DNA of 34,316 nt, from the IMG/VR virus record IMGVR_UViG_2737471860_000007. One strand, 5' to 3'. A program made the position numbers and the translations under genes. The notes under the pieces were generated by a model. The model had not been told where the DNA came from. It searched no databases and saw nothing but the letters and a program-made list of their open reading frames with translations. This document shows, piece after piece, positions 7,441 to 34,316 of the stretch (positions are counted from its first letter, which is position 1; each line of letters starts with the position of its first letter). This stretch comes from a virus. Lineage: Duplodnaviria > Heunggongvirae > Uroviricota > Caudoviricetes.

Positions 7441-7457
7441 TTATTTCCTCTAAGTAC

Positions 7458-7715
<258 letters not shown>

Positions 7716-7910
7716 TTAGCTCGAGCTTCGTATGGGGTATTGGCGCCTCGTCAGGCTTTACAGCCCGGTCATCGCAGTTCTATGTGAACTCTCGATTGCC
7801 AGGCCCAAATGCCAAACCCGAGATTCTCAAAGGTGGCGTAGTATACGCTGACTCAGCGATGTGCTCAAGTCCCGAACAGACAAAGATCCCGAAGGATCGC
7901 GCATAGCGGG

Positions 7911-8585: not shown

Positions 8586-8750
8586 CTCCTTTGTGGTGCT
8601 CGCATCCTGTCATAGCCGTTCCGTTAAATCGACGGCCAGTTTTCAATCCTGGAAAGCGCCTCGCAAAGTGATTCTCAGGTGAAGGCACGACAACAAAAGT
8701 ATTGTGATAAAATCGCCAACTTCTGGTGTCACCCAACAGGAAAAATCATC

Positions 8751-11853: not shown

Positions 11854-12570
11854 TCAGTTTGCCAGCGCCGCCTTCTGCGTCGCTACAATGGATTCGATTC
11901 CCCCTCGGGCCAGAGCCAACAAGGTGAGTAGCTCTTCATGGGTGAACGGCTCGCCTTCTGCCGTCCCCTGCACTTCAATGATGCGCCCGTCTTCGGTCAT
12001 CACTACGTTCATGTCGGTCTCTGCGGCAGAGTCTTCAACGTATTCCAGATCGCAAACCGCTTCGCCGTTCACAATTCCGACAGAAACTGCGGCTACCATC
12101 CCTTTCATCGGATTGGTTTTCAGCTTGCCGTTTTCCACCAGCTTCTGTAGCGCATCTGCCAGCGCCACGCAGGCACCCGTAATCGACGCGGTACGCGTGC
12201 CACCATCAGCCTGAAGCACGTCGCAGTCCAGCGTAATGGTGAACTCACCCAGCGCTTTCAAATCTACTGCCGCGCGAAGAGCACGGGCGATCAGACGCTG
12301 GATTTCCATTGTGCGTCCACCCTGCTTACCTTTCGCCGCTTCACGAGCGTTACGGGTGTGGGTAGAACGTGGCAGCATGCCGTACTCTGCGGTGATCCAG
12401 CCCTGGCCCTGACCTTTCAGGAAGCGCGGCACGCCTTCTTCAATAGAGGCGGTACACAACACTTTGGTATCGCCAAATTCGACCAGCACCGAGCCTTCTG
12501 CATGTTTTGTATAGTTACGAGTCAGGGTAACGGGACGCACCTGATTATTGCTACGGCCTGCTGGACGCAT
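11854..12570 (-). CDS. rph: Ribonuclease PH, apparently full length (238 aa)
   Basis: ATG at 12570 gives [42 protein letters not shown]... ending ...[11 protein letters not shown]. The supplied ORF starts 8 codons upstream. Confidence 0.95.
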
Positions 12571-12696
12571 ATTGAAATCTCCGGCTTGAAACAAATGTGG
12601 CTGCGCATTATACGGACTTCCGGCGGTTATTCCTATCCTGACAAGGCATCGATGGCTATAATCCTTCCACCTCTCCTTTTATAAACAGGAACGTCT

Positions 12697-13560
12697 ATGA
12701 TCCGCAGTATGACCGCCTACGCCCGGCGTGAAATCAAGGGTGAATGGGGGAGCGCAACCTGGGAAATGCGCTCGGTAAACCAGCGTTATCTGGAAACTTA
12801 CTTTCGTCTGCCGGAGCAGTTCCGTAGCCTTGAACCTGTCGTTCGCGAGCGTATTCGTTCTCGCCTGACGCGCGGTAAAGTGGAATGTACCCTGCGCTAT
12901 GAGCCAGATGTTAGCGCGCAAGGTGAGCTGATCCTCAACGAAAAACTGGCTAAACAGCTGGTAACTGCCGCGAACTGGGTAAAAATGCAGAGTGACGAAG
13001 GGGAAATCAACCCGGTTGATATTCTACGCTGGCCGGGCGTGATGGCAGCCCAGGAGCAGGATCTTGACGCCATTGCCGCTGAAATTCTCGCGGCGCTGGA
13101 TGGTACGCTGGACGACTTTATTGTCGCGCGCGAAACCGAAGGTCAGGCACTGAAAGCATTGATCGAGCAGCGTCTGGAAGGCGTCACCGCCGAAGTGGTC
13201 AAAGTCCGCGCCCATATGCCGGAAATCCTGCAATGGCAGCGTGAGCGTCTGGTCGCGAAGCTGGAAGATGCTCAGGTTCAGTTGGAAAACAACCGTCTGG
13301 AGCAGGAGCTGGTTCTGCTGGCACAACGAATTGACGTTGCCGAAGAACTGGACCGCCTGGAAGCGCATGTCAAAGAGACCTACAACATTCTGAAGAAAAA
13401 AGAAGCCGTTGGTCGTCGTCTGGACTTTATGATGCAGGAATTCAACCGCGAGTCGAACACTCTTGCGTCGAAGTCTATCAATGCCGAAGTGACAAACTCC
13501 GCGATTGAGCTGAAAGTGTTGATTGAGCAGATGCGCGAGCAGATTCAGAACATTGAATAA
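12697..13560 (+). CDS. yicC: YicC family stress-induced protein
   Basis: 287-aa translation MIRSMTAYARREIKGEWGSATWEMRSVNQRYLETYFRLPEQFRSLEP... matches YicC. Confidence 0.93.
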   Translation: MIRSMTAYARREIKGEWGSATWEMRSVNQRYLETYFRLPEQFRSLEPVVRERIRSRLTRGKVECTLRYEPDVSAQGELILNEKLAKQLVTAANWVKMQSDEGEINPVDILRWPGVMAAQEQDLDAIAAEILAALDGTLDDFIVARETEGQALKALIEQRLEGVTAEVVKVRAHMPEILQWQRERLVAKLEDAQVQLENNRLEQELVLLAQRIDVAEELDRLEAHVKETYNILKKKEAVGRRLDFMMQEFNRESNTLASKSINAEVTNSAIELKVLIEQMREQIQNIE

Positions 13561-13596
13561 CTCGTAACGCCAATTCTTACTTTTCAGCCTTCACAA

Positions 13597-13627
13597 ATGC
13601 CGCCCACTCAAACAGAGCGGCATTTTT
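13597..13627 (+). terminator. Putative rho-independent terminator downstream of yicC
   Basis: Stem atgccgc / gcggcat with a 13-nt loop, followed by TTTTT. About 37 nt after the yicC stop. Confidence 0.45.
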
Positions 13628-13719
13628 CTTCCCCGCAACTTCAATTCTGTTTTGCGTGCCTGCTCCAGATTTTGCGATGTTTTTTTGCCCAGCACACTGA
13701 GAACGTGAGATACTCACAA

Positions 13720-13735
13720 CTGTATATAAATACAG
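13720..13735. promoter_or_regulatory. LexA box (SOS operator) upstream of dinD
   Basis: CTGTATATAAATACAG fits the CTG-N10-CAG LexA consensus exactly; about 45 nt upstream of the dinD ATG. Confidence 0.7.
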
Positions 13736-13780
13736 TTACAGATTTACTTTCTTTGCAATCGATATCACATGGAGTGGGCA

Positions 13781-14605
13781 ATGAACGAACATCATCAACC
13801 TTTTGAAGAAATACGGCATTATGGCACTGAAGGGCAAGAATTTTGGTCAGCTAGAGAATTGGCACCGTTACTGGATTATCGGGACTGGCGCAATTTTCAA
13901 AAGGTACTGGCCCGCGCGACTCAAGCGTGCGAAGCCAGCAATCAAGCTGCATCTGACCATTTCGTTGAAACCACCAAAATGGTTGTATTAGGTTCAGGGG
14001 CTCAACGAGAACTTGAAGATGTTCATCTCTCCCGCTATGCCTGTTACCTGGTAGTACAAAACGGCGACCCTGCGAAACCGGTTATTGCGGCAGGGCAAAC
14101 TTATTTTGCTATCCAGACCCGACGGCAGGAGCTGGCTGACGATGAAGCTTTCAGGCAACTTCGTGAAGACGAAAAGCGTCTTTTTCTGAGAAATGAATTG
14201 AAAGAACATAACAAACAATTGGTTGAGGCAGCGCAGCAAGCTGGGGTAGCGACAGCTATCGATTTCGCCATATTTCAGAATCATGGTTACCGGGGGCTGT
14301 ATGGTGGATTAGATCAGAAAGCCATCCATCAGCGGAAGGGGCTGAAAAAGAGTCAGAAGATCCTGGATCATATGGGTTCAACAGAACTGGCGGCTAATCT
14401 CTTTCGAGCTACCCAAACAGAAGAAAAACTCAAGCGGGATGGCGTGAATTCAAAACAGCAAGCTAATACCACACACTTTGACGTGGGTAGCAAGGTGAGG
14501 CAAACCATTCAGGAACTTGGCGGAACCATGCCTGAGGAGTTGCCGACCCCGCAGGTCAGCATCAAGCAGTTGGAAAACAGTGTAAAAATTACAGAGAAGA
14601 AATAG
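13781..14605 (+). CDS. dinD: DNA damage-inducible protein D
   Basis: ATG at 13781 gives 274 aa MNEHHQPFEEIRHYGTEGQEFWSARELAPLLDYRDWRNF... SOS operator immediately upstream. Confidence 0.9.
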   Translation: MNEHHQPFEEIRHYGTEGQEFWSARELAPLLDYRDWRNFQKVLARATQACEASNQAASDHFVETTKMVVLGSGAQRELEDVHLSRYACYLVVQNGDPAKPVIAAGQTYFAIQTRRQELADDEAFRQLREDEKRLFLRNELKEHNKQLVEAAQQAGVATAIDFAIFQNHGYRGLYGGLDQKAIHQRKGLKKSQKILDHMGSTELAANLFRATQTEEKLKRDGVNSKQQANTTHFDVGSKVRQTIQELGGTMPEELPTPQVSIKQLENSVKITEKK

Positions 14606-14896
14606 CAGAAACTAAAAACTCTTTTTGTTGATTGAGATACCCGATGCGTAAGCCAAAGTCCAGGTGCGGTGAACACAATGGCTAAACATTGCACCTTTCT
14701 TTTCCACCCCTCAATTTTAACCTATTTTTTCTTATGCATTTTCTCAGACAAGAAGTCAGAAGAATGCATCTACGCTACAGAAAATAGCGATTTCACATAA
14801 CTACAAGTTATCAATTTCCTCTCACCTTAAAAAATCTCAATCGTGACAATACGCACAAATCGCTACCCTGCCAGACAGATTTTTAGGGAGAGAACC

Positions 14897-18074
<3,178 letters not shown>

Positions 18075-18128
18075 ACCTGATTTCAGTATCATGCCCAGTC
18101 ATTTCTTCACCTGTGGAGCTTTTTAAGT

Positions 18129-18404
18129 ATGGCACGCGTAACTGTTCAGGACGCTGTAGAGAAAATTGGTAACCGTTTTGACCTGGTACTGGTCGCCGCG
18201 CGTCGCGCTCGTCAGATGCAGGTAGGCGGAAAGGATCCGCTGGTACCGGAAGAAAACGATAAAACCACTGTAATCGCGCTGCGCGAAATCGAAGAAGGTC
18301 TGATCAACAACCAGATCCTCGACGTTCGCGAACGCCAGGAACAGCAAGAGCAGGAAGCCGCTGAATTACAAGCCGTTACCGCTATTGCTGAAGGTCGTCG
18401 TTAA
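18129..18404 (+). CDS. rpoZ: RNA polymerase omega subunit
   Basis: 91-aa translation [58 protein letters not shown]... matches RpoZ. Confidence 0.95.
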
Positions 18405-18422
18405 TCACAAAGCGGGTCGCCC

Positions 18423-20531
18423 TTGTATCTGTTTGAAAGCCTGAATCAACTGATTCAAACCTACCTGCCGGAAGACCAAATCAAGCGTCTGCGGCAGGCG
18501 TATCTCGTTGCACGTGATGCTCACGAGGGGCAAACACGTTCAAGCGGTGAACCCTATATCACGCACCCGGTAGCGGTTGCCTGCATTCTGGCCGAGATGA
18601 AACTCGACTATGAAACGCTGATGGCGGCGCTGCTGCATGACGTGATTGAAGATACTCCCGCCACCTACCAGGACATGGAACAGCTTTTTGGTAAAAGCGT
18701 CGCCGAGCTGGTAGAGGGGGTGTCGAAACTTGATAAGCTCAAGTTCCGCGATAAGAAAGAGGCGCAGGCCGAAAACTTTCGCAAGATGATTATGGCGATG
18801 GTGCAGGATATCCGCGTCATTCTCATCAAACTTGCCGACCGTACCCACAACATGCGCACGCTGGGCTCACTTCGCCCGGACAAACGTCGCCGCATCGCCC
18901 GTGAAACTCTCGAAATTTATAGCCCGTTGGCGCACCGTTTAGGTATCCACCACATTAAAACCGAACTCGAAGAGCTGGGTTTTGAGGCGCTGTATCCCAA
19001 TCGTTACCGCGTAATTAAAGAAGTGGTGAAAGCCGCGCGCGGCAACCGTAAAGAGATGATCCAAAAAATCCTCTCTGAAATCGAAGGGCGTTTGCAGGAA
19101 GCGGGAATACCGTGCCGCGTCAGTGGTCGCGAAAAGCATCTTTATTCGATTTACTGCAAAATGGTGCTCAAAGAGCAGCGTTTTCACTCAATCATGGACA
19201 TCTACGCTTTCCGCGTGATCGTCAATGATTCTGACACCTGTTATCGCGTGCTCGGGCAAATGCATAGCCTGTACAAGCCGCGTCCGGGTCGCGTGAAAGA
19301 CTATATCGCCATTCCTAAAGCGAACGGCTATCAGTCGTTGCACACCTCGATGATTGGCCCGCACGGCGTGCCGGTTGAGGTCCAGATCCGTACCGAAGAT
19401 ATGGATCAGATGGCGGAGATGGGTGTTGCCGCGCACTGGGCTTATAAAGAGCACGGCGAAACCAGTACTACCGCACAAATCCGCGCCCAGCGCTGGATGC
19501 AAAGCCTGCTGGAGCTGCAACAGAGCGCCGGTAGTTCGTTTGAATTTATCGAGAGCGTTAAATCCGATCTCTTCCCGGATGAGATTTACGTTTTCACACC
19601 GGAAGGGCGAATTGTCGAGCTGCCTGCCGGTGCAACGCCCGTCGACTTCGCTTATGCAGTGCATACCGATATCGGTCATGCCTGCGTGGGCGCACGCGTT
19701 GACCGCCAGCCTTACCCGCTGTCGCAGCCGCTTACCAGCGGTCAAACCGTTGAAATCATTACCGCACCGGGCGCTCGCCCGAATGCCGCGTGGCTGAACT
19801 TTGTCGTTAGCTCAAAAGCGCGCGCCAAAATTCGTCAGTTGCTGAAAAACCTCAAGCGTGATGATTCTGTAAGCCTGGGCCGTCGTCTGCTCAACCATGC
19901 TTTGGGTGGTAGCCGTAAGCTGAATGAAATCCCGCAGGAAAATATTCAGCGCGAGCTGGATCGCATGAAGCTGGCAACGCTTGACGATCTGCTGGCAGAA
20001 ATCGGCCTTGGTAACGCAATGAGCGTGGTGGTCGCGAAAAATCTACAACATGGGGACGCCTCCATTCCACCGGCGACTCAAAGCCACGGGCATCTGCCGA
20101 TCAAAGGCGCTGATGGCGTGCTGATCACCTTTGCGAAATGCTGCCGCCCCATTCCTGGCGACCCGATTATCGCCCACGTCAGCCCCGGTAAAGGTCTGGT
20201 GATCCACCATGAATCCTGCCGTAACATCCGTGGCTACCAGAAAGAGCCAGAGAAGTTTATGGCTGTGGAATGGGATAAAGAGACGGCGCAGGAGTTCATC
20301 ACCGAAATCAAGGTGGAGATGTTCAATCATCAGGGTGCGCTGGCAAACCTGACGGCGGCAATTAACACCACGACCTCGAATATTCAAAGTTTGAATACGG
20401 AAGAGAAAGATGGTCGCGTCTACAGCGCCTTTATTCGTCTGACCGCTCGTGACCGTGTGCATCTGGCGAATATCATGCGCAAAATCCGCGTGATGCCAGA
20501 CGTGATTAAAGTCACCCGAAACCGAAATTAA
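18423..20531 (+). CDS. spoT: Bifunctional (p)ppGpp synthetase/hydrolase SpoT (TTG start)
   Basis: 702-aa ORF beginning at TTG 18423; HD hydrolase motif (HDVIED) and synthetase domain present. 18 nt downstream of the rpoZ stop. Confidence 0.95.
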   Translation: MYLFESLNQLIQTYLPEDQIKRLRQAYLVARDAHEGQTRSSGEPYITHPVAVACILAEMKLDYETLMAALLHDVIEDTPATYQDMEQLFGKSVAELVEGVSKLDKLKFRDKKEAQAENFRKMIMAMVQDIRVILIKLADRTHNMRTLGSLRPDKRRRIARETLEIYSPLAHRLGIHHIKTELEELGFEALYPNRYRVIKEVVKAARGNRKEMIQKILSEIEGRLQEAGIPCRVSGREKHLYSIYCKMVLKEQRFHSIMDIYAFRVIVNDSDTCYRVLGQMHSLYKPRPGRVKDYIAIPKANGYQSLHTSMIGPHGVPVEVQIRTEDMDQMAEMGVAAHWAYKEHGETSTTAQIRAQRWMQSLLELQQSAGSSFEFIESVKSDLFPDEIYVFTPEGRIVELPAGATPVDFAYAVHTDIGHACVGARVDRQPYPLSQPLTSGQTVEIITAPGARPNAAWLNFVVSSKARAKIRQLLKNLKRDDSVSLGRRLLNHALGGSRKLNEIPQENIQRELDRMKLATLDDLLAEIGLGNAMSVVVAKNLQHGDASIPPATQSHGHLPIKGADGVLITFAKCCRPIPGDPIIAHVSPGKGLVIHHESCRNIRGYQKEPEKFMAVEWDKETAQEFITEIKVEMFNHQGALANLTAAINTTTSNIQSLNTEEKDGRVYSAFIRLTARDRVHLANIMRKIRVMPDVIKVTRNRN

Positions 20532-20537
20532 TGTTTT

Positions 20538-21227
20538 ATGAACCCAACACGTTATGCACGCATCTGCGAAATGCTCGCCAGGCGGCAGCCTGATCTGACC
20601 GTCTGCATGGAGCAGGTCCACAAACCTCATAACGTTTCTGCGATTATTCGTACCGCAGATGCCGTTGGCGTACATGAAGTTCACGCCGTCTGGCCTGGTA
20701 GCCGCATGCGCACCATGGCTTCGGCAGCGGCGGGTAGTAACAGCTGGGTACAGGTGAAAACACACCGCACCATTGGCGATGCCGTCGCTCATCTCAAAGG
20801 CCAGGGAATGCAGATTCTGGCAACCCATCTTTCTGATAACGCTGTCGATTTCCGCGAAATTGATTACACTCGCCCGACCTGCATTTTGATGGGACAGGAG
20901 AAAACGGGCATCACGCAGGAAGCATTGGCCCTGGCGGATCAGGACATCATCATTCCGATGATCGGCATGGTGCAGTCGCTGAATGTTTCCGTTGCCTCAG
21001 CCCTCATTCTTTACGAAGCCCAGCGTCAGCGGCAAAATGCAGGCATGTACCTGCGTGAAAACAGCATGTTGCCGGAAGCAGAGCAACAACGCCTGTTGTT
21101 TGAAGGCGGCTATCCGGTGCTGGCGAAAGTCGCAAAACGCAAAGGCCTGCCTTATCCCCACGTCAATCAGCAAGGCGAGATCGAAGCTGATGCCGACTGG
21201 TGGGCTACTATGCAGGCTGCAGGGTAA
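20538..21227 (+). CDS. trmH: tRNA (Gm18) 2'-O-methyltransferase TrmH (SpoU)
   Basis: 229-aa translation MNPTRYARICEMLARRQPDLTVCMEQVHKPHNVSAIIRTADAVGV... matches TrmH; SPOUT fold. Confidence 0.95.
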   Translation: MNPTRYARICEMLARRQPDLTVCMEQVHKPHNVSAIIRTADAVGVHEVHAVWPGSRMRTMASAAAGSNSWVQVKTHRTIGDAVAHLKGQGMQILATHLSDNAVDFREIDYTRPTCILMGQEKTGITQEALALADQDIIIPMIGMVQSLNVSVASALILYEAQRQRQNAGMYLRENSMLPEAEQQRLLFEGGYPVLAKVAKRKGLPYPHVNQQGEIEADADWWATMQAAG

Positions 21228-21232
21228 GTGCC

Positions 21233-23314
21233 ATGAAAGGTCGCCTGTTAGATGCTGTCCCACTCAGTTCCCTAACGGGCGTTGGCGCAGCACTTAGTAA
21301 CAAACTGGCGAAAATCAACCTGCATACCGTGCAGGATCTACTCTTACACCTTCCCCTGCGCTACGAAGATCGCACCCATCTCTACCCCATCGGAGAACTA
21401 CTGCCGGGCGTTTATGCCACGGTGGAAGGCGAAGTGCTGAACTGCAATATCTCCTTCGGCGGTCGGCGGATGATGACCTGCCAGATCAGCGACGGTTCCG
21501 GCATCCTCACCATGCGCTTTTTCAATTTCAGCGCGGCAATGAAAAATAGCCTGGCGACGGGCCGCCGTGTACTGGCTTATGGCGAAGCAAAGCGCGGTAA
21601 ATATGGTGCGGAGATGATCCACCCGGAATACCGCGTGCAGGGCGATCTCAGCACGCCAGAATTACAGGAAACGCTCACGCCGGTTTATCCAACAACGGAA
21701 GGCGTAAAGCAGGCCACGCTGCGTAAATTAACCGACCAGGCGCTGGATCTGCTCGACACCTGCGCCATTGAAGAACTCCTGCCGCCGGAACTGTCACAAG
21801 GAATGATGACGCTACCGGAAGCGTTGCGCACTTTGCACCGCCCGCCACCGACGCTACAGCTTAGCGATCTGGAAACCGGGCAGCATCCGGCGCAACGTCG
21901 TCTGATTCTGGAAGAACTGCTGGCGCACAACCTCAGCATGTTAGCCTTACGTGCCGGAGCACAGCGTTTTCATGCCCAGCCGCTGAGCGCCAATGACACG
22001 CTGAAAAATAAACTCCTCGCCGCCTTACCGTTCAAGCCAACGGGCGCACAGGCACGCGTAGTGGCGGAGATCGAGCGCGATATGGCGCTGGATGTGCCGA
22101 TGATGCGTCTGGTGCAGGGCGATGTAGGTTCCGGTAAAACGCTGGTCGCCGCCCTCGCCGCGTTGCGTGCGATTGCCCACGGCAAACAGGTAGCATTGAT
22201 GGCACCAACCGAATTACTCGCCGAGCAGCACGCCAATAACTTCCGCAACTGGTTTGCACCGCTCGGTATCGAAGTGGGCTGGCTCGCCGGTAAGCAGAAA
22301 GGTAAAGCACGGCTGGCACAGCAGGAAGCCATCGCCAGCGGTCAGGTGCAGATGATTGTCGGTACACACGCCATCTTCCAGGAACAGGTGCAGTTTAACG
22401 GCCTGGCGCTGGTGATTATCGACGAACAGCATCGTTTTGGCGTGCATCAGCGTCTGGCATTGTGGGAGAAAGGCCAGCAGCAGGGCTTCCATCCGCATCA
22501 GTTGATCATGACCGCCACGCCGATCCCCCGCACGCTGGCAATGACTGCGTATGCCGATCTCGATACCTCGGTGATAGATGAGCTGCCGCCAGGCCGCACG
22601 CCAGTGACTACGGTCGCTATTCCTGATACCCGCCGTACCGACATCATTGACCGCGTGCGCCACGCCTGCATAACTGAAGGTCGTCAGGCATACTGGGTTT
22701 GTACGTTGATTGAAGAGTCGGAATTGCTGGAAGCGCAGGCGGCGGAAGCTACCTGGGAAGAGTTGAAACTGGCGCTACCAGAGTTGAACGTTGGCCTGGT
22801 ACACGGGCGGATGAAACCTGTCGAGAAACAGGCGGTGATGGCGTCGTTTAAACAAGGTGAGCTACACCTGCTGGTTGCCACAACCGTTATTGAAGTCGGC
22901 GTTGATGTGCCTAACGCCAGTCTGATGATTATCGAAAACCCGGAGCGTCTGGGTCTGGCGCAGTTACACCAGCTTCGCGGGCGTGTAGGTCGTGGTGCGG
23001 TGGCTTCTCACTGCGTGCTGCTCTACAAAACGCCGCTCTCCAAAACCGCGCAAATTCGGCTGCAAGTGCTGCGCGACAGCAACGACGGTTTTGTGATTGC
23101 ACAGAAAGACTTAGAGATTCGCGGACCGGGTGAACTGTTAGGTACGCGTCAGACGGGTAATGCTGAGTTTAAAGTGGCGGATTTACTGCGCGATCAGGCG
23201 ATGATCCCGGAAGTTCAGCGCCTGGCGCGACATATTCACGAACGTTACCCACAACAAGCAAAAGCCCTGATAGAACGCTGGATGCCGGAGACGGAACGTT
23301 ACTCCAACGCATGA
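21233..23314 (+). CDS. recG: ATP-dependent DNA helicase RecG
   Basis: ATG at 21233 gives 693 aa MKGRLLDAVPLSSLTGVGAALSNKLAKINLHTVQDLLLHLPLRYEDRT...; Walker A GDVGSGKT and DEQH box present. The supplied ORF is extended 11 codons. Confidence 0.95.
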   Translation: MKGRLLDAVPLSSLTGVGAALSNKLAKINLHTVQDLLLHLPLRYEDRTHLYPIGELLPGVYATVEGEVLNCNISFGGRRMMTCQISDGSGILTMRFFNFSAAMKNSLATGRRVLAYGEAKRGKYGAEMIHPEYRVQGDLSTPELQETLTPVYPTTEGVKQATLRKLTDQALDLLDTCAIEELLPPELSQGMMTLPEALRTLHRPPPTLQLSDLETGQHPAQRRLILEELLAHNLSMLALRAGAQRFHAQPLSANDTLKNKLLAALPFKPTGAQARVVAEIERDMALDVPMMRLVQGDVGSGKTLVAALAALRAIAHGKQVALMAPTELLAEQHANNFRNWFAPLGIEVGWLAGKQKGKARLAQQEAIASGQVQMIVGTHAIFQEQVQFNGLALVIIDEQHRFGVHQRLALWEKGQQQGFHPHQLIMTATPIPRTLAMTAYADLDTSVIDELPPGRTPVTTVAIPDTRRTDIIDRVRHACITEGRQAYWVCTLIEESELLEAQAAEATWEELKLALPELNVGLVHGRMKPVEKQAVMASFKQGELHLLVATTVIEVGVDVPNASLMIIENPERLGLAQLHQLRGRVGRGAVASHCVLLYKTPLSKTAQIRLQVLRDSNDGFVIAQKDLEIRGPGELLGTRQTGNAEFKVADLLRDQAMIPEVQRLARHIHERYPQQAKALIERWMPETERYSNA

Positions 23315-24165
23315 CCAGACTCATCACAAGACAAGTCACGCAGTAAATCTTCAATCTGGATAGTGAGGATATCCATTGCCTCATACGCATCCTGTGCAAT
23401 TCGCGCCGCCATTGCGCCTTCCGGTTCACCACGCAGAATTTCAGCCGCTGCCTGTACGCCAGCCACAATCATTTCAGGTGTTAACATTTGGCGAAGAAAA
23501 GCGCGATTATCAGAGGACCAGCCATCTTTATGGCCTAATGGATGCCCCCAGCCTATCCATTCTTGCGACCATAACGGATTGGCTTCTATGGGATAAATTA
23601 GATGCGCGGCATACTGAATAGCACACACCGCTTTTCCTGGCGTATCCAGCGCCCACCAGCGCGACCAGAGAGAATGAATTAACGGCGCGGCCCCACCCAG
23701 AGTATTGAACACCGCCAGCCAGCAAAGAACGTTATTGAAACCACGCTCGTTATCCATACGCTGCAACGCGGTGTCCAGTAAAAATTGCCGTACCTGCTGG
23801 CGTTGGGAAGCATTCATCATCTCCTGCCAGAGATAGGGCCGACACAATGCCTTCATTAAGGATTCTTCGAAGTGATCACCATAACCGCCAGCTAAAACGG
23901 TTTCATGCCATTGCGCCAGGCAGAGCGGAAACAGATAGCGAAACAACTCTATTTGCATCGGTTCGTTATAAACGAGATTGAGTACATAGTAAGCACTCAA
24001 ATCCCATACGCTGATCTGCTGCCACTCTTTAGCCGCCAGCGCCTTGAGTTCGGCATCTGCGTAATCAAATTCCGTTTCCCATACACAGAGCACTGGCGGC
24101 TCATCACCAAAAATATGGCGACAGTGTTCACGTAGCGTTTCCGGTTCCTTCCGACGCTTTTTCAT
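23299..24165 (-). CDS. Hypothetical protein (288 aa), unknown function; Trp-rich, predicted soluble
   Basis: ATG at 24165 lies 2 nt after the gltS stop codon (24168-24170) on the same strand, suggesting translational coupling. Its 3' end overlaps the recG 3' end by 16 nt in antisense. 14 Trp in 288 aa; no obvious hydrophobic transmembrane stretch or signal peptide. Codon usage is broadly E. coli-like with some rare codons (ATA, CTA, CGG, CGA). No recognisable motif from memory. Confidence 0.6.
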   Translation of the reverse strand: MKKRRKEPETLREHCRHIFGDEPPVLCVWETEFDYADAELKALAAKEWQQISVWDLSAYYVLNLVYNEPMQIELFRYLFPLCLAQWHETVLAGGYGDHFEESLMKALCRPYLWQEMMNASQRQQVRQFLLDTALQRMDNERGFNNVLCWLAVFNTLGGAAPLIHSLWSRWWALDTPGKAVCAIQYAAHLIYPIEANPLWSQEWIGWGHPLGHKDGWSSDNRAFLRQMLTPEMIVAGVQAAAEILRGEPEGAMAARIAQDAYEAMDILTIQIEDLLRDLSCDESGHALE

Positions 24166-24167
24166 TT

Positions 24168-25373
24168 TTAACCGGCAAAAATCGGCAACATTAAATACAG
24201 CTTAATCACCAGCGCATTGACGATATCGATAAAGAACGCACCGACCATCGGCACCACCAAAAACGCCATGTGCGACGGGCCAAAGCGTTCAGTGATCGCC
24301 TGCATGTTGGCGATTGCCGTTGGCGTTGCACCGAGGCCAAAACCACAGTGACCCGCAGCCAGCACTGCCGCATCGTAGTTTTTGCCCATCATGCGCCAGG
24401 TAACGAAGATGGCATACAACGCCATGAAGATGGTCTGTACCACCAGAATCGCCAGCATCGGCAGCGCCAGCGAAGCCAGCTCCCACAGTTTCAGCCCCAT
24501 CAGCGCCATCGCCAGGAACAACGACAGGCTTACGTTACCCAGCACGGATACCGCACGCTCAAAGACGCGGTAAAAGCCCATCATTGACAGACCGTTGCTC
24601 AGAATCACGCCAACAAACAGTACACAGACGAAGGTCGGCAGTTCAAAAGCAGTGCCAGCCAAAAGTTGCGCAACAATTTTCCCCACCGTCAGGCAGATAG
24701 CAATCAGCGCGATAGTTTCAATCAGCACCAGCGAGGTGATCATGCGGCCCACATCCGGCTTTTCAAACGCCGTCGGGACTTCCTGGTCATCCGGAATACC
24801 GTTCGGCGTGGTGGAGTGTTTCACCAGATAGCGCGCCACCGGACCGCCAATCAAGCCGCCCAGCACCAGACCGAACGTTGCACAGGCCATCGCCACTTCC
24901 GTCGCATTGGTGAAGCCATAACGTTCAATGAACAATTTACTCCACGCAGCGCCCGTACCGTGACCGCCGGAAAGCGTAATAGAACCGGCCAACAGCCCCA
25001 TCAGCGGATCAAGCCCTAACAGGCTAGCCATACCAATGCCAATGGCATTTTGCATCACCAACAGACCAACAACCACAATCAAGAAGATGCCAACCACACG
25101 CCCACCGGCACGCAAACTGGCAATGTTGGCGTTCAGGCCAATGGTGGCGAAGAAAGCCAGCATTAACGGATCGCGCAGGGACATATCAAAGTTGACTTCC
25201 CAGCCCATGCTTTTTTTCAGTACTAGTAGCGCCAGCGCCACCAACAAACCACCCGCAACAGGTTCCGGTATGGTGTATTTCTTCAAAAAGGAGACGGAAT
25301 GGACCAACTTACGCCCGAGCAGCAACGTCAGCGTTGCGGCAACAAGCGTTGCTAAAGTATCGAGATGAAACAT
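24168..25373 (-). CDS. gltS: Sodium/glutamate symporter GltS
   Basis: 401-aa translation MFHLDTLATLVAATLTLLLGRKLVHSVSFLKKYTIPEPVAGGLLVALALL... matches GltS; polytopic membrane protein. Confidence 0.95.
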   Translation of the reverse strand: MFHLDTLATLVAATLTLLLGRKLVHSVSFLKKYTIPEPVAGGLLVALALLVLKKSMGWEVNFDMSLRDPLMLAFFATIGLNANIASLRAGGRVVGIFLIVVVGLLVMQNAIGIGMASLLGLDPLMGLLAGSITLSGGHGTGAAWSKLFIERYGFTNATEVAMACATFGLVLGGLIGGPVARYLVKHSTTPNGIPDDQEVPTAFEKPDVGRMITSLVLIETIALIAICLTVGKIVAQLLAGTAFELPTFVCVLFVGVILSNGLSMMGFYRVFERAVSVLGNVSLSLFLAMALMGLKLWELASLALPMLAILVVQTIFMALYAIFVTWRMMGKNYDAAVLAAGHCGFGLGATPTAIANMQAITERFGPSHMAFLVVPMVGAFFIDIVNALVIKLYLMLPIFAG

Positions 25374-25652
25374 AGTTACTCCTTTGTATCCGCATCACTC
25401 TTTCATACTCGTCATACTTCATCGCGCAGTGGCAACTTCATGAACTATGACGGGTATCGAGTTATGCTTTCCTGGGTCAAATTCTCAGCTGTTAATGAAC
25501 AAATGGCATGGATTTTAAGCAGAAAAATACCAAAAGTTATATAAAAAAGTGCATTTATCTCATTTAAATATTTAGATGAGGATGTGGCAAACGTTTGCTT
25601 TTCTCTTTCGGTCAGCTAAAATGCCCGCTTTGCTACCACGGGATTGTTTTCG

Positions 25653-27164: not shown

Positions 27165-28874
27165 ATGAAATTTATTGGGAAGCTGCTTCTCTACATTCTC
27201 ATCGCTCTGTTAGTGGTGATCGCTGGCCTCTATTTTCTTCTGCAAACCCGCTGGGGAGCAGAACATATCAGCGCATGGGTTTCCGAGAATAGCGACTATC
27301 ATCTGGCCTTCGGGGCGATGGATCACCGTTTTTCCGCGCCATCTCATATCGTGCTGGAGAACGTCACGTTTGGCCGTGATGGCCAGCCCGCGACCCTGGT
27401 GGCAAAAAGTGTCGACATTGCGCTAAGCAGTCGGCAACTGACCGAACCACGCCATGTCGATACCATCCTGCTGGAAAACGGGACGCTGAATCTCACCGAC
27501 CAGACCGCGCCGCTACCGTTCAAAGCCGATCGTCTGCAACTGCGTGATATGGCGTTTAATAGCCCGAATAGCGAATGGAAACTGAGCGCGCAGCGGGTAA
27601 ATGGCGGCGTAGTTCCGTGGTCACCAAAAGCCGGTAAAGTGCTGGGTACGAAGGCGCAGATTCAGTTTAGTGCCGGATCGCTTTCGCTCAATGATGTTCC
27701 TGCCACCAATGTACTGATTGAAGGCAGTATTGATAACGATCGCGTTACGCTGACTAACCTGGGTGCCGACATCGCCCGCGGGACATTAACCGGAAACGCG
27801 CAGCGTAACGCCGACGGCAGCTGGCAAGTGGAAAACCTGCGCATGGCGGATATACGTCTACAAAGCGAAAAATCGCTAACCGACTTCTTTGCGCCATTAC
27901 GCTCTGTCCCGTCGTTGCAGATTGGTCGCCTGGAAGTGATCGATGCTCGTTTGCAAGGTCCGGACTGGGCGGTGACCGACCTCGATCTCAGCTTGCGCAA
28001 CATGACCTTCAGTAAAGATGACTGGCAGACACAGGAAGGCAAACTGTCGATGAACGCTAGCGAGTTCATTTATGGTTCGCTGCATTTATTTGACCCGATT
28101 ATAAACGCGGAATTTTCCCCGCAGGGCGTAGCGCTGCGCCAGTTCACCAGCCGCTGGGAAGGGGGTATGGTCAGAACGTCAGGGAACTGGCTGCGTGACG
28201 GGAAAACGTTGATCCTTGATGATGTGGCAATTGCCGGGCTGGAATATACCTTGCCGAAAAACTGGCAACAGTTGTGGATAGAAACGACACCCGGTTGGTT
28301 AAACAGCCTGCAACTGAAGAGATTTAGCGCCAGCCGCAATCTGATCATTGATATCGACCCTGACTTCCCGTGGCAGCTCACCGCGCTCGATGGTTACGGT
28401 GCCAACCTGACGCTGGTTACCGATCATAAATGGGGCGTCTGGAGTGGCTCGGCGAATCTGAATGCCGCCGCCGCGACATTCAATCGTGTTGATGTTCGTC
28501 GCCCGTCGCTGGCGCTGACCGCCAACAGCAGCACGGTGAATATCAGCGAACTGAGTGCATTTACTGAAAAAGGCATTCTGGAAGCCACCGCCAGTGTTTC
28601 ACAAACGCCACAACGTCAGACACATATCAGCCTGAATGGACGCGGTGTGCCGGTGAATATTTTGCAACAGTGGGGATGGCCTAAATTACCGTTGACTGGC
28701 GACGGCAATATTCAGCTTACCGCCAGTGGCGATATTCAGGCCAATGTCCCGTTGAAACCTACGGTTAGCGGGCAATTGCATGCCGTGAACGCCGCAAAGC
28801 AGCAAGTGACTCAAACCATGAATGCTGGCATCGTTTCCAGCGGTGAAGTTACATCGACGGAGCCGGTGCGGTAA
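27165..28874 (+). CDS. yicH: AsmA family protein YicH
   Basis: ATG at 27165 gives 569 aa MKFIGKLLLYILIALLVVIAGLYFLLQTRWGAEH... with an N-terminal membrane anchor. The supplied ORF is extended 8 codons. Confidence 0.9.
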   Translation: MKFIGKLLLYILIALLVVIAGLYFLLQTRWGAEHISAWVSENSDYHLAFGAMDHRFSAPSHIVLENVTFGRDGQPATLVAKSVDIALSSRQLTEPRHVDTILLENGTLNLTDQTAPLPFKADRLQLRDMAFNSPNSEWKLSAQRVNGGVVPWSPKAGKVLGTKAQIQFSAGSLSLNDVPATNVLIEGSIDNDRVTLTNLGADIARGTLTGNAQRNADGSWQVENLRMADIRLQSEKSLTDFFAPLRSVPSLQIGRLEVIDARLQGPDWAVTDLDLSLRNMTFSKDDWQTQEGKLSMNASEFIYGSLHLFDPIINAEFSPQGVALRQFTSRWEGGMVRTSGNWLRDGKTLILDDVAIAGLEYTLPKNWQQLWIETTPGWLNSLQLKRFSASRNLIIDIDPDFPWQLTALDGYGANLTLVTDHKWGVWSGSANLNAAAATFNRVDVRRPSLALTANSSTVNISELSAFTEKGILEATASVSQTPQRQTHISLNGRGVPVNILQQWGWPKLPLTGDGNIQLTASGDIQANVPLKPTVSGQLHAVNAAKQQVTQTMNAGIVSSGEVTSTEPVR

Positions 28875-28885
28875 ACATCAATCTC

Positions 28886-28912
28886 GCCGGGTACGACTCA
28901 GACGTACCCGGC
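28886..28912. terminator. Hairpin between convergent yicH and yicI (putative bidirectional terminator)
   Basis: Inverted repeat gccgggtacg-actcaga-cgtacccggc between the two stop codons. Confidence 0.4.
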
Positions 28913-28926
28913 ATTCCATCAATAGA

Positions 28927-31245
28927 TTACAACGTAATTGTCAGCGCATTCCCTTGAGGCTTCACCACCAGCCCCTGCTCACTTTCAGCCTGCGAACCGT
29001 CTTGCAGACCATTTACTTTCACAACATTGCGCAGGCACAGCGTCCAGTTCTTCGCCTCGCCCGCACCAGTCACAGTAATCGTGTTGCCAGTACGTGCTGC
29101 TTTTAAAGTAAAGATCACCGATCCGTCAGTAGCGGGCACTTCACAGACGGCTTCATGCCCGTCTTGCAGATTAAAGAGGTGGAATGCCGTGCCTTCGTGC
29201 CACACGTAATCGGGACGTTGATCGTTGTTGCCCAGCGCCAGTAGGGTGTTATCACGCACATAAATGGGCAGACTCAGGAAGCTGTGCTGCTGTTTATGCC
29301 AGCGACTACCGTCGAGCTCATCGTTGTGCCACAGGTGTGTCCAGCGACCTTCCGGCAGGTAGAACTGCACATCGCCCGCTTCAGTGAACACCGGCGCAAC
29401 CATCACGTTGTCGCCTAACATGTATTGACGGTCAAGGTAATCACAAGCCGGATCGTCCGGGAACTCCATCATCATGGCCCGCATCATCGGCGTACCCCGC
29501 GCGTTCGCACGCGCAGCTTCACGATACAGATACGGCATCATGCGGCATTTCAGTTGCGTGAAGAAGCGCACCACATCACAGGACTCATCATCGTAGTCCC
29601 ACGGCACACGATAAGATTTGCTACCGTGTAAACGGCTATGGCTGGAGAGCAAACCAAACGCGCACCAGCGTTTGTAAACGTGCGCCGGAGCGGTATTTTC
29701 AAAGCCGCCGATATCGTGGCTCCAGAAGCCAAAACCTGAAAGGCCAATAGACAAACCACCGCGCAGGCTTTCCGCCATTGATTCGTAGTTAGCGTAACAA
29801 TCGCCACCCCAGTGTACCGGGAATTTCTGCGCACCGACGGAGGCCGAGCGGGCAAACAAGACAGCTTCTTCCTCACCAACGGTGTCCTTGAGCACGTTCC
29901 ACACCAGTTCGTTGTAGATGTACGCATAATGGTTATGCATTTTCTGCGGATCGGAACCGTCAAACCACTGAACATCAGTTGGGATACGTTCGCCAAAGTC
30001 GGTCTTAAAGCAATCAACGCCCATCGCGACCAGACCTTTCAGTTTGTCGGCGTACCATTTGCAGGCATCCGGATTGGTAAAGTCATAAATCGCCAGACCT
30101 GGCTGCCATTTATCCCACTGCCATAGCGAACCGTCCGGGCGTTTGAGTAAATAGCCTTTCTCTTGTAACTCTTTAAAGACGGGGGATTTTTGACCGATAT
30201 AGGGGTTAATCCAGACGCAGATTTTCAGTCCTTTCGCTTTCAGGCGGCGGATCATCCCTTCCGGGTCAGGGAAAGTCAGCGGGTCCCACTCAAAATCGCA
30301 CCACTGGAAGGCTTTCATCCAGAAACAGTCAAAGTGGAAAACATGCAGCGGCAGATTGCGTTCCGCCATACCATCGATAAAGCTGTTTACCGTCGCTTCG
30401 TCGTAGTTGGTGGTAAATGAAGTGGTTAGCCACAGGCCGAAGGACCACGCGGGCGGCAGCGCCGGACGACCAGTAAAGCGGGTATAACGATCAAGTACCG
30501 CTTTCGGCGTCGGGCCGTCGATAACAAAGTATTCGAGATATTCACTCTCAACGCTGAACTGCACTTTGGAGACTTTCTCCGATCCCACTTCAAAAGAGAC
30601 ACACTGGGGATGATTGACCAGTACCCCATAACCACGGTTAGTCATGTAGAACGGGATATTTTTATACGCCTGTTCAGTACTTGTGCCGCCGTCCCGGTTC
30701 CAGGTCTCTACCGTCTGGCCATTGCGCACCAGGGCAGTAAAGCGCTCTCCCAGACCGTAAACTGTTTCGCCAACGCCAAGATCAAGCCGCTCAAACATAT
30801 AATTGCGTTGATTATTCGTGTCCTGCACGTAGCCATTATTTTTCACCTGACTACCGGTAATACGTTCGCCGTTGCGCAGAAAATCCAGTGACCAGAACTC
30901 ACCTTTGCTGACACGCGCGCTTAAGTTGCCACTTTTAAACTCAGCATAACGTTCTGTGTTTTCGATTGTGACCTTCACGTCCTGCAAAATATTGAGCGGA
31001 TAATGAGGACCGTTATTCAGCGCCCCCTGAAAATGCTCAATCCGCACACCGACAATACCTTCCTGTGGGGAGAAAAAGCGCAACGTAAATAAAGGAGTAT
31101 CAAGCTGCCAGGTACGTTCACGCACATCACGGGGGGCAGCATAGACCACCATTTCATTATCCTGCTGTTCAACCTCGAACACCTGAAGCGGGTGAATCAA
31201 ATTGAGGCCAGGTTGAATCAACCAGTTTCCATCGCTAATTTTCAT
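28927..31245 (-). CDS. yicI: Alpha-xylosidase YicI (GH31)
   Basis: 772-aa translation [41 protein letters not shown]... matches YicI; GH31 catalytic region (WINPYI..., KTDFGE) present. Confidence 0.95.
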
Positions 31246-31254
31246 TGCCGTTCC

Positions 31255-32637
31255 TTAGTTCTGCACTTCTTGAGAGGTGAATTGTTGCTGGCAACGGCGT
31301 TTACCCTGAGCCAGCTGTTCCATAACGGTTTTCAGATTGTGCGTCGTGAGTGAGTAGTAGCGTTTAGCGATAATCGCGCTCAGCAAATAACAGATCGCCG
31401 GAACAATCGTGAATAGCGCAATAATGATGCTAATCGTGGCGCTGTTCTGCGCTTTTTCTGCCGCATCATATCCGCCATAAGCCAGCATCCAGCCGATAAG
31501 AGCGCCGCCGAAGGCCAACCCCAGTTTGAGCACAAACAGCGTGCCAGCAAAACTGATCCCGGTCAGGCGTTTACCATTGCACCACTCGCCGTAGTCGACG
31601 GTATCGGACATCATTACCCACTGGATAGGTGTCACCAGTTGATGCAACACACCAATCACGAAGATGAAGACAAACATAGTGATGCTGGCCTGCATGGGAA
31701 CAAAGAACATCGCGAGGCTAATCACTGCCAGCAGGGCGTTCGTCCACCAGAAGATAGTGACTTTACATTTCCAGTCGGTCAGAGGTTTTGCCAGTGCGGA
31801 ACCAATCAGGTTACCCACGCAATAAGTGGTGAGAAAAGCGACAAACACTTCCGGCGTGCCCAAAATCCATGTGACGTAATACATCATCGCCCCACCGCGT
31901 ACGCACACCGCCAGGATATTGAAAATGGTTAGTAAACCGACAATCCGCCACTGGTCGTTTTGCCAGATATCACGTAAATCTTCCCGCATAGACGTTGTTG
32001 TAGGTGGTGCTTCAACGCGTTCTTTAGTGGTGAAGAAACAAAATGCCAGCATCATGAATGCCACCACGGAAAGGACCGCGATACCGCCCTGGAAACCGAG
32101 TGGTTTATTATCACCGCCAATTAAATTAACCAGTGGCATCATCAGAACAGTAGAAAGCATGCCTCCCGCGGTCGCCAGCACAAAACGCCAGGATTGCAGC
32201 GAGATACGCTGAGTCGGGTCATTGGTGATTACACCACCCAATGCGCAGTAAGGGATATTGACGACGGTATAAAGTAAGGTAAGTAGGGTGTAAGTAATTG
32301 CTGCATAGATCATTTTGCCGTTCATACTGAGATCTGGCGTGCTATAGGCCAGTACACAGACGATCCCGAATGGCAGTGCGCCAAACAGTACCCACGGACG
32401 AAATTTACCCCAGCGAGAGCGCGTTCGATCGGCCAACAACCCCATGCAAGGATCGGAAATCGCATCCAGTGCACGAGCGACCAAAAACATGGTTCCGACA
32501 AATCCGGCAGGAATGCCAAAAATATCGGTATAAAAGAACATCATATATAACATTACGTTATCGAAAATAATGTGGCTGGCGGCGTCTCCCATGCCATAAC
32601 CAATTTTCTCTTTAACGGACAACACTTCACTCTTCAT
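31255..32637 (-). CDS. yicJ: GPH-family sugar:cation symporter YicJ
   Basis: ATG at 32637 gives 460 aa MKSEVLSVKEKIGYGMGDAASHIIFDNVMLYMMFFYTDIFG... The supplied ORF is extended 19 codons. 9 nt upstream of yicI, so likely a yicJ-yicI operon. Confidence 0.9.
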   Translation of the reverse strand: MKSEVLSVKEKIGYGMGDAASHIIFDNVMLYMMFFYTDIFGIPAGFVGTMFLVARALDAISDPCMGLLADRTRSRWGKFRPWVLFGALPFGIVCVLAYSTPDLSMNGKMIYAAITYTLLTLLYTVVNIPYCALGGVITNDPTQRISLQSWRFVLATAGGMLSTVLMMPLVNLIGGDNKPLGFQGGIAVLSVVAFMMLAFCFFTTKERVEAPPTTTSMREDLRDIWQNDQWRIVGLLTIFNILAVCVRGGAMMYYVTWILGTPEVFVAFLTTYCVGNLIGSALAKPLTDWKCKVTIFWWTNALLAVISLAMFFVPMQASITMFVFIFVIGVLHQLVTPIQWVMMSDTVDYGEWCNGKRLTGISFAGTLFVLKLGLAFGGALIGWMLAYGGYDAAEKAQNSATISIIIALFTIVPAICYLLSAIIAKRYYSLTTHNLKTVMEQLAQGKRRCQQQFTSQEVQN

Positions 32638-32929
32638 CTGCTTTTCCTTGATGCTATAGGGGTGCTGAGACCGATAACGCATTTTGTAAACCATCCCTGT
32701 GAGAGCGAATATTCCGATATCTGGTTATTAATTTATGATTCTTGTTTTATGTGATCGTGGTAGCGTTAATTCCGCTCATATATCATTGTAAAATATGGGT
32801 TTTATATGAACTATAATGCTTTCGTGATAATACGCTGCGTGTATTAGGCGGAAAAAACTGATCTGGGGGATGTAGAAACTCAAGGAAGTAGCTATAATGC
32901 GCCCCGCCTCCATGTAGCAATCGAGGCGC

Positions 32930-33024
32930 GGAAGATCGTCGTCTCCGGTGAGGCGGCTGGACTTCAAATCCAGTTGGGGCCGCCAGCGGTCCCGGGCAGG
33001 TTCGACTCCTGTGATCTTCCGCCA
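32930..33024 (+). tRNA. selC: tRNA-Sec (selenocysteine, UCA anticodon)
   Basis: 95-nt sequence GGAAGATCGTCGTCTCCGGTGAGGCGGCTGGACTTCAAATCCAGTTGGGGCCGCCAGCGGTCCCGGGCAGGTTCGACTCCTGTGATCTTCCGCCA matches remembered E. coli selC, including the long variable arm and CCA end. A TATAAT hexamer lies at 32893-32898 upstream. Confidence 0.93.
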
Positions 33025-34316
33025 AACTTCATCCAGCCAGTTCCGAGACACTCCATAAAACCCTTTATATTCAATATGATGAATAATCATCTTATCCGTA
33101 ATAGTCCGAGAACGTCTCCCTGAATCCGCGAAAAATATGTATAGTAATGTGTATAGAATTTTTATACGCAGTTTTCAGTTATACATATGGCTCTAACCGA
33201 TATACAAATCAAACGCGCAAAACCACAAGACAAACCATATACATTGAATGATGGGCAAGGTCTGTCATTGCTTATCAATCCCGATGGCTCGAAAGGATGG
33301 CGTTTCCGTTTCCGGTTTGCAGGGAAAGCGCGGTTAATGTCATTTGGTAGTTACGACCTTGTAAGCCTCGCGGAAGCACGTGAGAAACGCGATACGGCTC
33401 GTAAGCAGGTAGCAAACGGCATAGACCCAGTTGAAGAACGTAAAGCCCAAAAGCTGGCACAGAAACTCTCAACAGAGAACTCATTCGAAGCCATATGTAG
33501 AGAATGGCACACTAACAAAGCGGATCGCTGGACAGTGGCCTACCGCGAAGAAATCATTAAAACATTTGAACAAGATGTATTCCCATTCATTGGTAAACGC
33601 CCTATAAGTGAAATCAAACCGTTAGAACTGCTTGAAGTATTGCGACGAATAGAGAAACGTGGAGCACTAGAGAAGACCAGAAAAGTGCGGCAAAGATGCG
33701 GGGAGGTCTATCGCTATGCGATCATAACTGGTCGCGCTGAATACAATCCAGCGCCTGATTTGGCTATCGCTCTGGCCGTTCCTAAGCAAGAACACCATCC
33801 TTTTTTATCTGCTGAAGAGTTACCTCATTTTATTCGGGACCTTGAAGCGTATACCGGTAGCCTTATCACCAAAAATGCTACAAAGATAGTCATGTTAACT
33901 GGTGTAAGAACACAGGAGATGCGATTTGCTACGTGGGAAGAGATTGACCTTGAGAAAGGTATATGGGAGATCCCCGCTGAACGGATGAAAATGCGTAGGC
34001 CTCATATTGTTCCTTTATCCGCTCAGGTAGTTGATCTCTTTAAACAGCTCAAGCCTATCACCTATAATTACCCATACATTTTTATTGGCAGAAACAACCG
34101 TAGCAAACCGATTTCGAAAGAAAGTGTGTCACAAGTAATTGAGTTACTTGGTTATAAAGGACGAGCTACTGGCCATGGTTTTAGACATACAATGTCGACT
34201 ATTTTACATGAGCAAGGATACGATAGTAAATGGATTGAATTACAGCTTGCACATGTAGATAAAAATTCGATACGTGGTATTTATAACCATGCGCAAGGTA
34301 GTGACTCCAACTTACT
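33025..34316 (+). mobile_element. Left end of a selC-inserted genomic island (integrase module); extent beyond window unknown
   Basis: An integrase gene in the same orientation starts 162 bp 3' of the tRNA. In the K-12 arrangement, as I recall it, selC is followed by setC/yicL instead. selC is a well-known island insertion hotspot. Confidence 0.6.
33187..34316 (+). CDS. int: Partial CDS (C-terminus beyond window): P4-family tyrosine integrase adjacent to selC
   Basis: Hand translation from ATG 33187: MALTDIQIKRAKPQDKPYTLNDGQGLSLLINPDGSKGWRFRFRFAGKARLMSFGSYDLVSLAEAREKRDTARKQVANGIDPVEE... through ...TGVRTQEMRFATWEEIDL...GRATGHGFRHTMSTILHEQGY...LQLAHVDKNSIRGIYNHAQG. Has the N-terminal arm-binding domain typical of P4-like integrases, the conserved Arg box and the H-x-x-R box. 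Open to the window end, so absent from the ORF track. AT-rich compared with flanking core genes. Confidence 0.85.
   Translation, partial: MALTDIQIKRAKPQDKPYTLNDGQGLSLLINPDGSKGWRFRFRFAGKARLMSFGSYDLVSLAEAREKRDTARKQVANGIDPVEERKAQKLAQKLSTENSFEAICREWHTNKADRWTVAYREEIIKTFEQDVFPFIGKRPISEIKPLELLEVLRRIEKRGALEKTRKVRQRCGEVYRYAIITGRAEYNPAPDLAIALAVPKQEHHPFLSAEELPHFIRDLEAYTGSLITKNATKIVMLTGVRTQEMRFATWEEIDLEKGIWEIPAERMKMRRPHIVPLSAQVVDLFKQLKPITYNYPYIFIGRNNRSKPISKESVSQVIELLGYKGRATGHGFRHTMSTILHEQGYDSKWIELQLAHVDKNSIRGIYNHAQGSDSNL

Follow-up and report, generated by a model that had tools for sequence, protein, structure and literature searches.

Probable left end of a P4-like satellite prophage in selC, with its integrase gene cut by an IS1 terminus at a contig edge

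The foreign DNA at the right-hand end of the sequence analysed here (the window, a stretch of 34,316 nt given as IMG/VR record IMGVR_UViG_2737471860_000007) is best read as the left end of a P4-like satellite prophage inserted in the 3' end of selC, consisting of the attL arm and an integrase gene (int) that has been cut by IS1. This reading, which covers positions 33027 to 34296, is given a probability of about 0.8. Where the window ends, so does a draft contig (JUDC01000068.1, 60,732 nt, in assembly GCA_000798075.1), and the sequence stops at 34316 because short-read assembly broke at the repeated IS1. The features on which the reading depends are collected in Table 1.

Table 1. Features at the right-hand end of the window, in window coordinates
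Feature	Position	Strand	Remarks
selC, tRNA-Sec (UCA), integration target	32930..33024	+	ARAGORN; Rfam RF01852, 83.8 bits
attL core GACTCCTGTGATCTTCCGCCAAA	33004..33026	+	23 bp: the 3'-terminal 21 nt of selC and the next 2 nt
int-proximal att arm and int upstream region, first foreign DNA	33027..33186	+	35% GC
Candidate arm-type integrase binding sites ATATGTATA (33135-33143) and ATGTGTATA (33147-33155)	33135..33155	+	tandem, 12 bp apart
Integrase gene, codons 1-370 of 393	33187..34296	+	DUF4102 arm-binding, core-binding and catalytic domains
Codon of catalytic tyrosine Y366 (RGIY366NHAQ)	34282..34284	+	by alignment, counterpart of the YTH tyrosine in XerH (5jjv) and XerA (5hxy)
Terminal inverted repeat from the insB-proximal end of IS1, cutting int	34297..34316	+	sequence GGTAGTGACTCCAACTTACT

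The tRNA-Sec gene is the only tRNA gene found in the window by ARAGORN, and the same selC sequence is present in E. coli K-12 and in strain E308, which carries an IS-free copy of the element. The 23-bp core occurs once in the window, as the attL copy, and twice in E308, 11,467 bp apart. In a second relative, 13P460A, an ISEc12 within the element widens this distance to 14,054 bp. The duplication of the core at both ends that goes with integration into a tRNA gene is thus seen in the relatives, the window itself holding the attL copy only. The empty site of K-12 equals the left flank of the E308 attL joined to the right flank of its attR, with 0 mismatches in 700 nt, and the window diverges from that empty site exactly past the core. 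Given this match and the 23-bp repeat, the insertion was therefore precise, and the window is foreign DNA from 33027 on. The left boundary of integrated DNA proposed in the first-pass annotation is borne out by these comparisons, as are its attachment core overlapping the tRNA 3' end and the direct repeat of that end which it suggested looking for. A simple consensus scan of the interval between selC and int gave no sigma-70 promoter and no terminator. A rhuM fragment located past attR was considered as a possible relic of a second island, with a further att copy as its boundary, and ruled out; it belongs to the chromosomal backbone, since K-12 carries the same fragment, as yicT, at the empty site.

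The att arm next to int contains a tandem pair of similar 9-mers, and when attP was rebuilt from both ends of the E308 element, the same ATATGTATA/ATGTGTATA pair was found to recur, with equal 12-bp spacing, on the arm adjoining attR. A shuffle control for the arm repeats gave a modest result (105 of 5000 shuffles, ~2%). The annotated attP of phage P4 is laid out likewise, with tandem 12-bp repeats in both arms, but both core and arm motif are different, the latter being ATRTGTATA here and TGCCCCC in P4. The ATRTGTATA tandem sites are put forward as candidates for the arm-type sequences to which the DUF4102 domain might bind. The candidate arm-site stretch for Int residues 1-90 reads ATATGTATAGTAATGTGTATAG.

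The integrase ORF, which reads in the same direction as selC, opens with an ATG 162 nt past that gene and meets no stop before the window ends. It corresponds to the database entry KHI54993.1, a partial integrase of 376 aa whose gene runs to the last base of the contig. Up to 34296 it is 100% identical at the nucleotide level to the copies in E308, 13P460A and others (WP_023352765.1). Three Pfam domains were recognised: Arm-DNA-bind_3/DUF4102 (PF13356) in residues 3-88, at 96 bits (cut-off 27), and Phage_int_M (PF22022) in residues 100-193 and Phage_integrase (PF00589) in residues 206-370, both well above cut-off. Clear homologues exist among the solved structures of CP4/CPS-53-type integrases, both for the N-terminal domain (PDB 3ju0 and 3jtz) and for the central one. 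All of the active-site residues (R241, H330, R333, H356, and Y366) are kept, and they are invariant in an alignment of 14 sequences that includes P4 Int, to which the protein is 37% identical over its full length (38% in the alignment). The identification as a P4-type integrase in the canonical position and orientation beside selC therefore agrees with the earlier description, and so does the contrast in composition noted there, the gene having 43.5% GC against 52.5% in the upstream core genes. That description had also placed the catalytic tyrosine just beyond the edge of the sequence; it is in fact inside the window (Table 1).

Among the 25 matches listed from a protein search of phage records, identity over most of the length did not exceed 49%, two further records in the 60-80% band falling outside those 25; P4 was absent among the 25 as well, and the comparison with it was made via NC_001609. 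Integrases of Sf6, HK633, CUS-3, and Erwinia and Klebsiella phages are 46-49% identical, again among the matches listed. A distant search of the int DNA against 50,697 phage records found short weak matches only. The protein shares with the IntSXT subgroup, to which P4 and Sf6 Int belong (PMC8138268), both the N-terminal DUF4102 domain and a site beside a conserved gene, here a tRNA gene. The arm-binding domain, the core-binding domain and the R..HxxR..H..Y active site typical of IntSXT and P4-type enzymes are all present, but the ORF is incomplete, its integrase sequence ending at residue 370 of 393, where it is cut by IS1.

Homology to the 393-aa integrase ends after codon 370 (Q370), so that the breakpoint lies between 34296 and 34297. 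When positions 32900-34316 were compared with 5,426 complete E. coli genomes by megablast, the 100% matches all ended at query position 1397, which is window position 34296. Beyond this point the intact E308 allele reads ...CATGCGCAA TATATAGAACAG... and has its stop at codon 394, and the window has instead the 20 nt GGTAGTGACTCCAACTTACT. These match the insB-side end of K-12 IS1F at 19 of 20 positions and that of IS1A at 18 of 20, and they have the form of an IS1 terminus, GGT(A/G)(A/G)TG..CCAACTTA(C/T)T, exactly at the junction; no chance match to this pattern is expected in the window. The exact 20-mer was found four times in a scan of species-representative genomes. Two of the matches are nt 1-20 of full 768-bp IS1 copies (99.2% identical to IS1F and 95.7% to IS1A), the third begins a cut IS1 end of 107 nt lying at an E. 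coli contig edge, and the fourth is in a Bryobacteraceae MAG, in surroundings without IS1 similarity. IS1 consists of a 768-bp body with insA and insB, has a left end of the pattern ..CAGTAAGTTGGCAGCAT[C/T]ACC, and produces target-site duplications of 8-9 bp. The likeness to IS1 here is that of the 20 visible nucleotides, the body, the other end and any target duplication being outside the contig. With an exact IS1 end right after codon 370, the integrase is therefore interrupted by IS1, and the earlier impression that it is intact as far as the sequence extends has to be given up.

The junction is four codons past Tyr366, and the 23-residue tail YIEQRRNMMQFYSDFILNLPLSE has been displaced. This tail holds R375, M378, and Q380, each present in 13 of 13 full-length sequences aligned (P4 Int included), as part of a family pattern Y-x-x-x-R-x-x-M-x-Q-W/F-Y/W. 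Read-through into an IS1F-like copy with the same 20-nt end is predicted to give a 396-aa chimera ending in GSDSNLLIVFYVQIMPDDLVMQLHRF; two such predicted 396-aa Int-IS1 chimeras had no exact match in a collection of 15 billion proteins. In tyrosine recombinases the segment past the nucleophilic tyrosine packs onto neighbouring protomers, and Cre and lambda Int are, besides XerA, further analogues for the need of a C-terminal tail. XerA deprived of its C-terminal helix retains cleavage, and its recombination is abolished (PMC3646895). By analogy, the IS1 insertion has most likely disabled the integrase by depriving it of its conserved C-terminal tail, all of the catalytic residues being still in place. 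Since tail loss abolishes recombination in XerA, the cut enzyme would be expected to be incapable of completing recombination, and hence of excising or integrating the element, and any satellite left beyond the IS1 would be locked in place.

What such a satellite looks like can be seen in relatives with the identical integrase. The nearest complete genome, 13P460A, matches at 100.0% over 24,980 nt, with 3 mismatches in 21,397 nt. There the intact int (WP_023352765.1) is followed by genes for a TrlF-family AAA-like ATPase, psu, ogr/delta, a sid homologue (244 aa), a vis/alpA HTH protein (88 aa), an icd-like protein, an eps-like protein (95 aa), orf151, orf106 (DUF5375), and the alpha primase-helicase, and then by setC; alpha is the gene split by ISEc12. 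E308, ECO8855, and EC17CM2 carry the same element, their Int and TrlF proteins being identical. The chromosomal backbone of EC17CM2 is a different one, and the presence of the same element in it therefore indicates horizontal mobility. In all four of these genomes the satellite is alone between selC and the backbone yicT/rhuM fragment and setC, and in all four the P4-like core set (psu, delta, sid, alpha, vis/alpA, and int) is present in the expected order within ~10-15 kb. The E308 element is a precise insertion of 11,467 bp. Protein identity to phage P4 is 99% for alpha, 99% for Sid, and 96% for Psu, against 37% for Int, and Rfam models detect in the element a C4/CI immunity RNA (74.9 bits) and c4-a1b1 targets (49.5 bits). 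On these sequence comparisons the element in the relatives is essentially phage P4 with another integration module and another hotspot gene. The lineage is visibly decaying through IS hits, namely the IS1 here and the ISEc12 in alpha of 13P460A.

More divergent integrase alleles also belong to P4-like satellites. In strain H10 (94% allele) the cargo is a hypothetical protein and a kinase-domain protein, and in O145:H28 RM12581 (92.7% nucleotide identity, at selC) a complete satellite carrying gapS4a and other genes has the LEE in tandem behind it. The cargo ATPase of the closer relatives is assigned to the TrlF family by the NCBIfam model TrlF_fam_ATP (572 bits, cut-off 350). It was also tried as a Ppl and rejected, with the Ppl anti-phage model giving 109 bits against a cut-off of 1000. 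A text search of the literature on TrlF yielded spectroscopy papers only, and a defence role for this ATPase is presumed from its position in the psu-int hotspot.

The prophage shares its gene order with phage P4 (NC_001609): att, int, hotspot, psu, delta, sid, vis, CI RNA, eps, orf151, orf106, alpha, att. P4 Int agrees with the integrase described here in its three-domain architecture and catalytic residues, but it also has a 12-residue insert and a long C-terminal extension, neither of which is found in the latter. The target also differs, being selC here and not P4's own site, which is leuX, and the hotspot cargo is the TrlF-family ATPase in the relatives where P4 has gop-beta-cII. P4-like satellites are very common and carry variable antiviral or defence genes between psu and int (PMC9122126, Rousset et al., 2022; PMC8628076, Moura de Sousa and Rocha, 2021). 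The satellites of this integrase clade are no different in kind, and likewise vary their cargo at psu-int. PMC1635311 and PMC6174562 cite Sun, Inouye and Inouye (1991) for the retronphage phiR73, a P4-like cryptic prophage in E. coli selC, and the present element is thus of an already known kind. As phiR73 is described in those citing papers, it is the same type of element at the same site, and its cargo is a retron (reverse transcriptase) where the relatives of the present element have the TrlF-family ATPase.

Taken as the left end of such a satellite, the region would have arisen by the action of the DUF4102-type tyrosine recombinase on the 23-bp core common to the attP of the circular satellite and the attB in selC, a recombination that would regenerate the tRNA 3' end. 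As in P4, the N-terminal arm domain would probably recognise the paired ATRTGTATA sites, spaced 12 bp apart, in each att arm. In this strain IS1 would later have inserted after codon 370, replacing the 23-residue C-terminal tail.

What lies beyond the IS1 can be judged from the relatives, and a simple insertion, with the body of the element (TrlF-family ATPase, psu, delta, sid, CI RNA, and alpha) retained on its far side, is the probable arrangement, if by no means an assured one. The sequence past the contig end would then be expected to run through the left end of IS1 to a 9-bp duplicate, CATGCGCAA, followed by TATATAGAACAGCG (TATATAGAACAGCGAAGAAATATG) and then by the genes for the TrlF ATPase and psu. 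IS1 also promotes adjacent deletions, and by such a deletion or another rearrangement the satellite could have been lost in part or in whole, or moved, leaving int as a remnant in front of setC/yicL or of unrelated DNA. A single IS1 end is present in the window, with the target-site duplication beyond view, and the ISEc12 that splits alpha in 13P460A is a sign that the same lineage decays through IS hits. Set against this, transposition most often results in simple insertion, the whole satellite is still there in the near-clonal 13P460A, and positive evidence for a deletion is nil, so that a loss or rearrangement of this kind is held to be unlikely. The first-pass annotation had itself named an integrase truncated or frameshifted just past the edge, with setC/yicL following directly, as the finding that would speak against an island. 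Truncation there is, at the codon given above; the setC/yicL sequel falls outside the window.

That annotation had favoured an intact integrase at the edge of a genomic island whose cargo could be virulence, defence or metabolic genes, which would make this the left edge of a large selC island of the LEE, PAI-I536, SHI-2, or LPA type. selC is a documented site for cargo islands of this sort (PMC6174562), and the related integrase of O145:H28 RM12581 does have the LEE further downstream. The O145 integrase belongs to the complete P4-like satellite that precedes the LEE, though, and each close relative examined proved to contain a P4-like satellite with one or a few hotspot genes, the four genomes with the identical integrase having nothing else before the backbone. 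No large virulence or fitness block tied to the integrase was found in the relatives that share the identical gene, and the gene itself is not intact, so a large island is regarded as very improbable. Least credence of all is given to an assembly artefact, in which the 20-nt IS1 tip would be a mis-join or graph tip and the integrase really intact. The junction is indeed documented by a single contig end, in one draft assembly, and is present in 0 of 5,426 complete E. coli genomes. But the sequence changes over precisely at GGT, the canonical end of IS1, and ambiguous bases are absent; contigs that end some tens of bases into a multicopy IS are a normal sign of a real insertion; and another E. 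coli contig (L010) ends in IS1 in the same way.

It might also be imagined that the IS1 hit was selected as an immobilisation, turning a satellite with an uncharacterised anti-phage gene, for a TrlF-family ATPase distantly related to Ppl, into a domesticated defence locus. On such a view the 396-aa chimera would keep the catalytic residues without the tail needed for a productive synapse, and the independent ISEc12 in alpha of 13P460A would be a further case of a recurrent grounding of the satellite lineage. This is a speculative suggestion, and it is considered quite improbable.

For a P4-like satellite end with an IS1-cut integrase, the preferred reading, the biological weight is small, as roughly every second E. 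coli genome harbours a P4-like satellite and insertions of IS1 are common. Genes that run off the ends of contigs need to be checked for IS termini, the last 20 nt being enough in this case to turn "intact" into "disrupted". The presence of the catalytic tyrosine does not prove that a gene is complete, because in this integrase family it lies ~27 residues ahead of the C-terminus. Nor is a P4-type integrase at selC a flag for a pathogenicity island: in this integrase clade it signifies a satellite of ~11.5 kb, even where the LEE follows in tandem.

The P4-like satellite that begins in the window is also present, with an identical integrase, in E. coli E308, 13P460A, ECO8855 and EC17CM2. The one gene at the E308 hotspot (the variable cargo position between psu and int) encodes a TrlF-family ATPase, and this gene is identical in the other three strains. 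The similarity of the ATPase to the anti-phage protein Ppl is weak and sub-threshold, and a literature search found no paper on TrlF. The ISEc12 copy in the alpha gene of 13P460A, whose complete genome is near-clonal to the window's, is an independent IS insertion into the same satellite lineage as the window's.

Features in the window and in compared sequences
Sequence	Feature	Position	Strand	Remark
Window	3-alpha-galactosyltransferase	145-1161
Window	rfaP	1177-1983
Window	GT4 glycosyltransferase	1967-3091
Window	rfaQ	3088-4146
Window	JUMPstart element	4196-4234	(-)	upstream of rfaQ
Window	waaA	4560-5837		divergent
Window	288-aa ORF	23299-24165	(-)	between recG and gltS
E308 (L001)	ISKox3	262-1482		between yicC and dinD
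E308 (L001)	890-aa TrlF-family AAA-like/SMC-like ATPase	21487-24159	(-)	single hotspot cargo gene
E308 (L001)	rhuM-family pseudogene fragment	31671-31832		just beyond attR
13P460A (L005)	alpha primase gene split by ISEc12 (IS21-family)	28753-33672
EC17CM2 (L012)	PTS/aldolase/lyxose-isomerase operon, ~7 kb	2790-9733		between yicH and yicI
K-12 empty selC site (L015)	rhuM-family fragment (yicT)	1926-2057
O145:H28 RM12581 (L014)	complete P4-like satellite	12031-25393
L007	full-length E. coli-type IS1	224-991		contig labelled uncultured Prevotella MAG
L009	full-length E. coli-type IS1	54-821		contig labelled Streptomyces pinistramenti

The rhuM-family fragment beyond attR, the far-end att site, is backbone and not part of the satellite, because the empty K-12 site has it too; possibly it is what remains of an earlier island at selC. 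Salmonella SPI-3, located at selC, carries rhuM. Backbone near selC differs among the relatives, as seen in EC17CM2 (the PTS/aldolase/lyxose-isomerase operon) and E308 (ISKox3).

Elsewhere in the window, the ORF between recG and gltS overlaps the 3' end of recG by 16 nt and lies 2 nt from gltS. Searches of Pfam, NCBIfam and PADLOC gave no match for it, and it is annotated as a hypothetical protein at every occurrence. Of 5,426 complete E. coli genomes, 1,911 carry this segment; others, E308 among them, lack it. The window begins inside the LPS core (waa) cluster, whose genes in the table lie within positions 1-5837, and the GC content of the window's first kilobase is only 37%.

Two contigs assigned to other bacteria match the 20-nt IS1 end that cuts the window's integrase. 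Each is about 1 kb long and mostly IS1, and their presence in Prevotella and Streptomyces assemblies is probably a matter of contamination or mis-binned sequence.

In RM12581, the satellite lies between selC and the LEE (espF, escG, escF and following genes). Its hotspot contains gapS4a, and its int is 92.7% identical in nucleotide sequence to the window's integrase. Since a complete satellite separates selC from the LEE, the "LEE integrase" at selC in this strain is really that of the satellite, and satellite and LEE form a tandem array.
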